A stretch of DNA of 24,824 bases. Origin: a virus. The position numbers and the translations under genes were made by a program. The stretch is taken from the IMG/VR virus record IMGVR_UViG_3300050821_003111; one strand, 5' to 3'. Positions 9,168 to 9,969 of this stretch are shown here, one piece after another. Within the stretch, counting starts at the first letter, position 1; every line of letters starts with the position of its first letter. The notes beneath the pieces are model-generated. The model did not search any database. It saw only the letters and a program-made list of their open reading frames with translations, and had not been told where the DNA came from.

Positions 9168-9533
9168 TTATGGGCCAACACACGTGTTCCTGCTTTTGAT
9201 GGTTAGTATACCTTCTCGTTTGGCTTTCCCTATCTCTAGTTGGGCTATTTCGTGAGCAGTAAGAGGTCCTGGGACACAAGCTCGATTAAACCTTACGTCG
9301 GTTAATAGTTCCCTAAACATATGCCAACTAGGTGATCCTTTTTGCTGGAATCCTGGTAGTGCTAAACAAGCTTCCCTTTTATCAAAAAGCTCTTCATTTA
9401 TATAAATCCATATTGTAGGACCATAAGGTCTCAGGGTAAAATCAGTCCAGCCTCCACGAATAAGATCCTCTAACTGATGTTCATCTTTTATTCGGTGCCA
9501 GCCTGTTCTATCAGTAACTAGCTGCCAAGACAT
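9168..9533 (-). CDS. hypothetical protein, 121 aa
   Basis: ATG start. Overlaps the NADAR gene end by 23 nt. Followed by the terminator. Confidence 0.6.
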   Translation of the reverse strand: MSWQLVTDRTGWHRIKDEHQLEDLIRGGWTDFTLRPYGPTIWIYINEELFDKREACLALPGFQQKGSPSWHMFRELLTDVRFNRACVPGPLTAHEIAQLEIGKAKREGILTIKSRNTCVGP

Positions 9534-9969
9534 TACATTCGCCTCTTATTTTCATTAATATTCTACCTAGATGATTCTGGCCAGGTATACCTTGATGTTT
9601 CAGACAGGTACAATCACCCCAGAACTGGTCGTGCCAGCTATTACCTTCTATGATTATAGCTTGGCCTGTTTTGAGTAATTGAGCTCGTAAAACAATAGTC
9701 TGGAACTTCTGTCTTACTAGATCTTCCATAATATTAACTTTAATATGATCCCAATCTTCTCTCAACTTGAGCGTTTGGCCTAATTTCTTAGCATCACCTG
9801 CTGTAAAACCGAGAGCTGTGAATAGTTTACGCTCATCAGGAAATATGGTCTTTGCAGCTTGATACGCGTGCTCACAAGAAGAATAATATACTTCATCTAG
9901 CTTTATCATGCACGGCCAGAAGTTAGAAAGATATCTATATTCATTTTGGAATCTATTTATTATTAACAT
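9511..9969 (-). CDS. NADAR-domain protein (YbiA/DUF1768-like ADP-ribose-processing enzyme)
   Basis: YRYLSNFWP ... SCEHAYQAAK ... EDW ... VKVNIMEDLVRQKF ... LLKTG ... WGDC ... GQNHLGRILMKIR matches the NADAR signature order. The ATG at 9969 is taken as the start; the ORF track's TTG at 9978 is the alternative. Confidence 0.85.
   Translation of the reverse strand: MLIINRFQNEYRYLSNFWPCMIKLDEVYYSSCEHAYQAAKTIFPDERKLFTALGFTAGDAKKLGQTLKLREDWDHIKVNIMEDLVRQKFQTIVLRAQLLKTGQAIIIEGNSWHDQFWGDCTCLKHQGIPGQNHLGRILMKIRGECNVLAASY

Follow-up and report, generated by a model that had tools for sequence, protein, structure and literature searches.

A 24,824-nt stretch of viral DNA from the IMG/VR record IMGVR_UViG_3300050821_003111 (hereafter the window, meaning this whole stretch) encodes a small protein of the NADAR family at positions 9511-9969 on the minus strand. 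We favour, at a probability of roughly 0.55, the interpretation that this protein is an orphan counter-defence enzyme whose substrate is ADP-ribose attached to nucleic acid bases, with DNA as the favoured target, in a phage whose modules for NAD+ and ADP-ribose are separate from one another. A sequence-only reading of the same DNA had coupled the NADAR with a complete NadV-NatV NAD+ salvage pair at 19523-21968 and proposed a two-pronged answer to NAD+-based immunity. The phage itself is uncultured and large (GC 39.6%, five tRNA genes), and its viral nature is backed by the tRNAs, by phage families of the PHROG collection and by relatives in IMG/VR. When the whole window was compared by megablast with 50,697 phage records, only tRNA-sized matches came back, so it has no cultured close relative. 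One contig, ERZ27253508:k141_1621833, matches the window at 100% identity across 19.9 kb and extends ~10 kb beyond window position 1; window and contig extension together cover ~35 kb of a genome that is probably much larger.

The NADAR gene encodes 152 residues from an ATG at 9969, or 155 from an alternative TTG at 9978. Its family assignment was borne out by the Pfam NADAR model (PF08719; E=5.1e-24, 85.8 bits against a cut-off of 35.1, model positions 7-161 of 163), by phrog_1017 (E=1.8e-37) and, marginally, by TIGR02464 (81.1 bits against a cut-off of 73.7). Sequence searches of the PDB returned only Escherichia coli YbiA (2b3w, E=7.6e-12) and the Phytophthora nicotianae enzyme PnNADAR (8bau, E=4.5e-6). 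An AlphaFold (AF2) model built from an alignment of 77 NADAR relatives reached a mean predicted local distance difference test (pLDDT) of 97.2 and a predicted template modelling (TM) score of 0.90; in a Foldseek comparison with the PDB it was significantly similar to the same two structures alone (TM 0.82 to YbiA and 0.77 to PnNADAR), and 56 viral NADAR models matched the fold at E<=1e-3.

Conservation of the active site, on which the sequence-only reading had staked its proposal, was examined in the same 77-member alignment: E33, K40, E108 and D114 (152-residue numbering) are invariant, and W117 is nearly so. E33 and K40 (E36 and K43 in the 155-residue reading) align with the reference enzymes as the catalytic Glu-Lys pair, seven residues apart, which elsewhere is E43/K50 in PnNADAR, E88/K95 in EcC7 and E36/K43 in T4. 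Contacts of PnNADAR with ADP-ribose include E43, K50, E125, D130 and W133 (Schuller et al., PMC11543638), to which E33, K40, E108, D114 and W117, respectively, are aligned. At the position of E125, members of the YbiA subfamily have Glu, whereas DarT1-linked and BC4488 NADARs have Asp and T4-type phage NADARs have His (PMC11543638). By alignment the window protein is a Glu-type NADAR, and we predict that it acts as an ADP-ribosyl N-glycohydrolase of the branch that resembles YbiA, PnNADAR and AdfN-Bas32. Every tested NADAR with these catalytic residues hydrolyses guanosine-linked ADP-ribose on DNA (PMC11125620, PMC11543638) and RNA (PMC11833690).

A counter-defence role for such a protein has direct precedents. 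As the sequence-only reading stated, NADARs can reverse the guanine ADP-ribosylation introduced by DarT-type toxins: those linked to DarT1 do so (PMC11543638), and the orphan phage proteins T4 gp30.3 (AdfN-T4), AdfN-Bas32 and AdfN-Bas60 counter DarTG1, the latter two without need of other phage factors (Johannesman et al. 2025, PMC11825919). For AdfN-Bas32 this means that DarT1 is neutralised and that three phages are rescued on hosts with DarTG1 (PMC11825919). AdfN-T4 needs a phage context. We therefore compared the window NADAR with named family members. It shares 45-46% identity with the NADAR of a T5-like Salmonella phage, 39-41% with AdfN-Bas32 (bas32_0066 of phage IrisVonRoten; 40.7% over 145 residues, E=3e-27), 32-33% with YbiA and 27% with the Phytophthora protein; with T4 gp30.3 there is no BLAST similarity, and identity in the alignment is 16%. 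Of the AdfN proteins, the comparison took in AdfN-Bas32 and AdfN-T4; by identity, the window NADAR, AdfN-Bas32 and YbiA form a trio.

The likeness to AdfN-Bas32 extends beyond identity. Both are orphan, stand-alone phage NADARs of ~150 residues without a toxin partner, both fall in phrog_1017, and both carry identical catalytic motifs (xxEHAxQAxK and IEGNxWxDxxWG). They differ in that AdfN-Bas32 does not have a Cys/His insertion present in the window protein (CTCLKHQG) and adjoins RNase H and nucleotide-metabolism genes, whereas the window NADAR lies in a block of RNA-modification and repair genes. AdfN-T4 (PF08010) has in common the superfamily, the length and the Glu and Lys spaced seven apart, but the published third catalytic residue of the T4 type is His rather than the Glu found here, at a position where T4 is too divergent to align reliably; a gp30.3-type identity was rejected because BLAST gave no match and gp30.3 belongs to a different family, phrog_652. 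Since AdfN-Bas32 is as close to YbiA (41% identity) as it is to the window NADAR, transfer of its function to the window protein is only moderately secure.

This proximity to YbiA raises an alternative that automated annotation would also put forward, in which the protein is a YbiA-type N-glycosidase with a housekeeping role, destroying reactive intermediates of the riboflavin pathway. The identity to E. coli YbiA, the score above the TIGR02464 cut-off and the YbiA-subfamily Glu at the third catalytic position are all compatible with it. However, the TIGR02464 score is under half of YbiA's own (169.5 bits) and near those of the T5-like phage anti-DarT1 proteins (66-77 bits; 76.5 for the T5-like NADAR and 66.3 for AdfN-Bas32), and the model itself fails to separate YbiA from anti-DarT1 functions. 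YbiA and PnNADAR, the best structural matches, share the Glu at the third catalytic position and have the five PnNADAR residues conserved. YbiA differs in its setting, a LexA-controlled chromosomal operon with no phage context, in its riboflavin-intermediate N-glycosidase role and in having no Cys/His insertion. Neither riboflavin-synthesis genes (a RibA/RibD fusion) nor genes of the LexA/dinG operon were present in the ~35 kb of window and contig extension, and the occurrence of homologs of the window NADAR in 563 INPHARED records is hard to square with a riboflavin role. We regard the housekeeping role as very improbable.

The preferred interpretation, an orphan enzyme directed against base-linked ADP-ribose, gains plausibility from a second gene of the same phage. 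On the extended contig, ~9.5 kb past window position 1 and on the same strand as the window genes, an orphan DarG-like macrodomain of 143 residues is encoded (L015:20089-20520). Its PADLOC match to DarG (E=4.8e-21) is confined to the macrodomain portion (positions 1-146 of 329), and its PDB matches are DarG macrodomain structures (5m3i, E=5.6e-14; 5m31, E=1e-9). AdfM of PhiKZ (gp104, DarG2-like; PMC13309987) is likewise an orphan that has the macrodomain but lacks the C-terminal half with which DarG binds DarT; the two share 28% identity (E=3e-13), with the catalytic Asn (AdfM N23) and the PTK lysine conserved, and the phage studied here differs in having no sign of being a chimallivirus. The 143-residue protein is likely an anti-DarT2 enzyme, acting on thymine-linked ADP-ribose. 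Because such a DarG2-like orphan and the NADAR would between them cover complementary bases, thymine and guanine, its presence makes it more plausible that the NADAR removes ADP-ribose from DNA, and to this extent the counter-defence side of the two-pronged proposal was strengthened.

No DarT or ADP-ribosyltransferase (ART) match was found among the window ORFs with Pfam or PADLOC, which makes the NADAR an orphan. This bears on another possibility, that the NADAR controls or reverses modification by an ART of the phage itself, in regulation or self-immunity of the sort proposed for the early regions of T4-like phages, with NAD+ supplied by the salvage pair; NADARs of T4-like phages are indeed encoded near Alt-type ARTs (PMC9503650; T4 map). 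Yet neither the window nor the 10 kb next to it yielded an ART or PARP catalytic domain, WGR domains being the only PARP-associated feature, and the ~35 kb covered probably fall well short of the whole genome; a phage-encoded target of this kind strikes us as scarcely probable. WGR domains are otherwise known from PARPs. Those seen here lie at L015:14144-15752, where a DNA ligase (ATP-dependent, with a weak WGR at its N-terminus) is followed by a stand-alone 138-residue WGR protein and then by an unassignable 251-residue protein. The last was considered as a PARP or ART catalytic domain and dropped, as it had no Pfam, PADLOC or PDB match. A speculative link drawn earlier, between the Major Vault Protein (MVP)-like protein of the window and the NAD+-consuming vPARP, is unsupported for the same want of a detected catalytic domain. 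The contig extension also holds an AAA/DUF2201 pair.

The second module, the NadV-NatV pair, is complete as the sequence-only reading had stated. NadV, a nicotinamide phosphoribosyltransferase (Nampt) encoded at 19523-21001 on the minus strand, carries both NAMPT domains (PF18127, NAMPT_N, and PF04095, NAPRTase) and scores highly against phrog_448 (E=4e-159) and NF006629 (590.9 bits against a cut-off of 405); its alignment with human NAMPT reaches 499 bits, with EHSTIT (H247 region), RPDSG (R311/D313), GDGV and GMGG in register. The gene for a NatV/NadM-like nicotinamide mononucleotide (NMN) adenylyltransferase joined to a Nudix hydrolase (20994-21968, minus strand) lies immediately upstream, its 3' end overlapping the nadV start by 8 nt. 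Although divergent, this protein has the bifunctional architecture: an N-terminal HIGH-type nucleotidyltransferase with an HxGH motif (GRFQVAELHPGH, residues 13-24) and a C-terminal NUDIX domain (PF00293, E=3.8e-11; Nudix box REVREETG). Cytidylyltransferase and Nudix PHROGs are matched, and both halves align to NadM-Nudix NCBIfam models and to PDB 2qjo/2qjt. Its best NCBIfam score, 60.8 bits, is below the NadM equivalog cut-offs of 354-449, and from its sequence it is a divergent lineage with the NadM/NatV architecture. The best phage matches, at 32-36% identity, come from uncultured huge phages of 460-640 kb and from the Acidobacteria jumbo phage Tunturi_5 (Tunturiibacter); in LR756502 the NatV homolog lies directly beside NadV.

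By domain composition, the pair is of the published NARP2 pathway type and would synthesise NAD+. The NARP2 of KVP40, consisting of Nampt and NMN adenylyltransferase (NMNAT), abolishes Thoeris and DSR2 defence (Osterman et al. 2024, 10.1101/2024.02.11.579819), in agreement with the earlier description of the pair as a known KVP40-type module. As in KVP40, Nampt stands beside an NMNAT(-Nudix) protein with no Adps partner (no Prs-like match was found among the window ORFs scanned), and NadV is highly conserved. In contrast, NatV here is very divergent, KVP40-type sequences being absent from the best 30 of 33 tblastn matches, and it has a two-residue insertion before HxGH.

Genes on either side of the pair vary in kind. 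Upstream, with a SprT-like gene between, lies a PHA02142/DRB0094-type RNA ligase (22873-24162, minus strand; PF09414 and PF21189; TIGR02306 153.1 bits against 151.15), and this order is kept in a related metagenomic phage, L009. Downstream, a set of minus-strand genes at 16790-19535 begins with a 13-nt overlap with nadV and comprises a 258-residue predicted membrane protein (phrog_27316), a small ORF, a 313-residue secreted NMT1_3/TAXI-like solute-binding protein and a 191-residue membrane protein. This set, which is missing from L009, could be an uptake or envelope module joined to the salvage operon.

We next consider whether the NADAR and the salvage pair are coupled. About 10 kb separate them, and at least one strong terminator-like hairpin intervenes. 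Linkage was counted in the 80 best IMG/VR loci with a NADAR of the same clade, taking 10 kb on either side (1.35 Mb) and searching by tblastn with the window proteins; the resulting frequencies mix two databases, come from related loci biased towards large genomes, and register only homologs of the window versions. NadV was found within 10 kb of the NADAR in 3 of the 80 loci (3.75%), against 4.0% of phage records overall (2,010 INPHARED records), and NatV in none of the 80. A conserved NADAR-NadV neighbourhood for the clade was therefore rejected, the pair being syntenic only in the relative L009, where the gap narrows to 5 kb because the MVP, Thg1 and membrane/solute-binding protein genes are absent. 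Phage NADARs have been reported in neighbourhoods with NadM and NadV (PMC9503650), and both families are common in large phages: among medium and jumbo phages, >48% carry a NADAR and 22-33% carry NadV (Iyer et al. 2022, PMC9503650). Since both are so common and their linkage is at about the background rate, coexistence is no evidence of coupling; it is real, yet expected in a large phage, and the NADAR and NadV-NatV are separate modules with no sign of physical or regulatory coupling here. To this extent the two-pronged proposal, which was drawn from coexistence, is not supported.

If these predictions are correct, the modules would act in parallel. The NADAR would cleave the ribosyl-N bond that joins ADP-ribose to the exocyclic amine of guanine, and possibly of cytosine, wherever a host ADP-ribosyltransferase (DarT1, for example) has modified the nucleic acid of the phage; it would restore the base and free ADP-ribose as AdfN proteins do. 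The macrodomain would be the thymine counterpart of this guanine-ADP-ribose removal. NadV would convert nicotinamide and phosphoribosyl pyrophosphate (PRPP) to NMN, and the NMNAT half of NatV would convert NMN to NAD+, so that the NARP2-type pathway would refill a pool drained by NAD+-depleting defences, Thoeris and DSR-type systems among them. An optional hand-over can also be envisaged, in which freed ADP-ribose would be split by the NatV Nudix domain to AMP and ribose-5-phosphate, the latter returning through PRPP to NadV; annotation assigns an ADP-ribose pyrophosphatase role to Nudix domains of the NadM type (NF003789, NF003790).

The co-residence of a pathway that counters Thoeris also lends thematic fit to a different substrate, namely soluble ADP-ribose derivatives such as the cyclic ADP-ribose isomers that serve Thoeris as signals or toxic ADP-ribose phosphates, in place of adducts on macromolecules. 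This has been proposed for phage NADARs generally, on the ground that they are abundant compared with the signalling systems of hosts (PMC9503650). No NADAR is known to cleave molecules of this kind, however, every biochemical test to date having found hydrolysis of base-linked ADP-ribose, and the sequence offers no feature that discriminates in its favour; we judge it unlikely.

Gene order places RNA-related genes beside the NADAR. The longest terminator-like hairpins found on the minus strand by a consensus scan of region 5000-24824 are one of 12 bp with 7 GC at 11058-11085, between the MVP-like gene and the SpoU-like gene, and one of 12 bp with 6 GC and a T-rich tail at 9089-9120, after orf121; we propose them as the upstream and downstream boundaries of a transcription unit. 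Together they enclose a gene like those of SpoU/TrmH-family RNA 2'-O-methyltransferases (10482-11036; PF00588, E=5.4e-15), a small ORF, orf56 (9953-10123), the NADAR and orf121 (9168-9533), all on the minus strand. The SpoU-like gene would be the first of this putative unit; a PDB sequence search aimed at placing its subfamily gave no matches. Overlaps of an operon-like kind join the three last genes, the NADAR ATG falling within the final codons of the 56-codon orf56 and orf121, which has an AAGAGG ribosome-binding site, starting 23 nt ahead of the NADAR stop. Both orf56 and orf121 were read from the sequence. The former had no family match in Pfam, PADLOC or PHROG profile scans and is kept upstream of the NADAR in three related metagenomic phages (L096, L097 and L009) at 34-68% identity. 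The latter follows the NADAR directly in L096 and L097; it was dropped as an informative partner, having only 3 homologs among 5.8 billion proteins, no family match and an unreliable AF2 model (pLDDT 53).

The block as a whole is kept in the same three phages. The order is Thg1-MVP-SpoU-orf56-NADAR-orf121 in L096, SpoU-orf56-NADAR-orf121 followed at a distance by glutathionylspermidine (GSP) synthase and phosphoesterase genes in L097, and Rnl2-NatV-NadV-Rnl1, then SpoU-orf56-NADAR-PTH2, then single-stranded-DNA-binding protein (SSB) and peptide deformylase (Pdf) genes in L009. Within L096 and L097 the NADAR (63-69% identity) and orf121 (57-67%) have diverged further than MVP, SpoU, Thg1 and GSP synthase (74-80%), which is weakly consistent with arms-race genes. 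In L009, 32 codons that duplicate the N-terminal end of the NADAR (53% identity) lie a short way upstream of the intact gene (positions 9407-9502) and look like a remnant of rearrangement.

Upstream of the block in the window stand, all on the minus strand, the gene for the MVP-like protein of 806 residues (11100-13520), which has Major Vault Protein repeat (Vault_3) and MVP shoulder domains, a Thg1-like tRNA 3'-5' nucleotidyltransferase (13541-14299; PF04446) and a T4 Rnl1-like RNA ligase (14951-16141; PF09511) that is syntenic in L009 and L096. The L096 copy of the MVP-like protein is 80% identical, homologs of ~40% identity lie within 10 kb of the NADAR in 4 of the 80 IMG/VR loci, and no PARP partner was seen. 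The Thg1-like gene is co-resident with the phage's own tRNA-His(GTG). Beyond this lineage the neighbourhood varies: Thg1 overlaps the NADAR in L012 and a CCA-adding enzyme adjoins it in L011, whereas in L014 it lies beside DNA polymerase and uracil-DNA glycosylase, in L013 beside small early-type genes with DUF4326 and cREC, and in T5-like phages beside RNase H, dihydrofolate reductase and thymidylate synthase. Across the 80 loci, Thg1 was found within 10 kb of the NADAR in 4 (5%), against 164 of 50,697 phage records (0.32%), with Rnl1 in 3, Rnl2 in 3-4 and a phosphoesterase in 9; any of Thg1, Rnl1 or Rnl2 was present in 9. The recurrent company of this NADAR clade is thus RNA repair, not NAD+ salvage.

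One may accordingly postulate that the NADAR works in RNA repair or protection, stripping ADP-ribose from G or C of tRNA, rRNA or mRNA that RNA-targeting host ADP-ribosyltransferases have modified, or clearing ADP-ribose-derived by-products of RNA processing, beside SpoU, Thg1 and the two RNA ligases. The conserved unit between two strong hairpins, the Thg1 and CCA-adding neighbours in L012 and L011, and the enrichment of Thg1 all speak for this, as does the biochemistry: guanosine-linked ADP-ribose on RNA is reversed by NADARs, the only hydrolase family shown to do so (PMC11833690), and YbiA-type NADARs remove ADP-ribose from cytidine (PMC12945103). An RNA-repair link of phage NADARs has been proposed before (PMC9503650). 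The synteny, however, is seen in four related phages and may reflect mere common descent, other clade members adjoin DNA-replication genes, and the enrichment estimate ignores relatedness and genome size as well as mixing databases. Moreover, host defences that ADP-ribosylate guanines of RNA in phage infection are not known; CmdT modifies adenine. It does target mRNA (cited in PMC11825919). A role in RNA repair is in our view possible, if on balance doubtful.

The window protein appears to belong to a subclade within its family. A Cys/His-rich insertion (9595-9633, minus strand) adjoins the catalytic WxDxxWG loop and includes H113, C120, C122 and H125 (152-residue numbering). The pattern W-H-D-x-F-W-G-x-C-x-C-x-[KR]-[CH] following the loop is found in about half of the close relatives, this protein among them, and is not present in YbiA, AdfN-Bas32 or the T5-like NADAR in the alignment. 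Where the CxC is present, position 113 is His (once Cys) in 35 of 35 sequences, compared with 5 of 42 where it is absent (Fisher p=1e-16). The insertion may be a four-ligand zinc knuckle, a putative metal-binding site that sits beside the active site and marks the subclade. No description of the insertion was found in the literature consulted; the NADAR structure paper (PMC11543638) mentions zinc and cysteine nowhere, and 'metal' only for affinity purification. In this phage lineage the Cys/His-insertion NADAR is fixed in the SpoU-orf56-NADAR-orf121 block, with Thg1-like and RNA-ligase genes near. A narrower idea, which we hold to be a long shot, is that the subclade is specialised for RNA and takes ADP-ribose off tRNA or rRNA bases, possibly with orf121, as phage RNA repair against an undescribed defence that ADP-ribosylates RNA bases.

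Our preferred interpretation, that the NADAR is an orphan counter-defence enzyme acting on base-linked ADP-ribose with DNA favoured, must be made cautiously, and several observations weigh against it. Four NADAR types from E. coli and T4 all hydrolyse guanosine-linked ADP-ribose in vitro and none hydrolyses the thymidine-linked form, and yet YbiA and T4 gp30.3 give cells no protection from DarT1 (PMC11125620); activity in vitro is therefore no predictor of specificity in vivo. The identity to AdfN-Bas32 only matches the distance between AdfN-Bas32 and YbiA, and the window NADAR passes the YbiA-type TIGR02464 model, if marginally. Its conserved neighbours are RNA-related (SpoU, Thg1, RNA ligases and the CCA-adding enzyme of L011) and not DNA-replication or NAD+ genes. 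NatV, for its part, falls under the NadM equivalog cut-offs.

If the interpretation is true, one uncultured large phage would hold three independent answers to NAD+-based immunity (NADAR for guanine, macrodomain for thymine and NARP2 for NAD+ resynthesis), a natural example of stacked counter-defences whose divergent enzymes would be useful for probing the poorly understood rules of NADAR specificity. Each component, like their joint occurrence in large phages, has been described before, the NADAR-NadV/NadM association in 2022, and no new question is opened. What is new is small: the Cys/His-insertion subclade, and the finding that NADARs of this clade recur near Thg1-like and RNA-repair genes. 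Together with the DarG-like macrodomain these constitute modest leads.

Several further features describe the window at large. Every substantial ORF across it lies on the minus strand, as do its tRNA genes: Ile-TAT (2718-2810, unusually long at 93 nt), Arg-TCT (6132-6208), Leu-TAA (7248-7334), and His-GTG and Leu-TAG within 24351-24533, of which tRNA-His(GTG) occupies 24351-24426. As these are mixed among peptide deformylase, SSB, phosphoesterase and RNA-ligase genes, the window looks like an island of translation and RNA maintenance. A gene of the glutathionylspermidine-synthase family (preATP-grasp; 4664-5806, minus strand; PF03738, E=2e-144) is 80% identical to its copy in L097, which is unusually high for an auxiliary phage gene.

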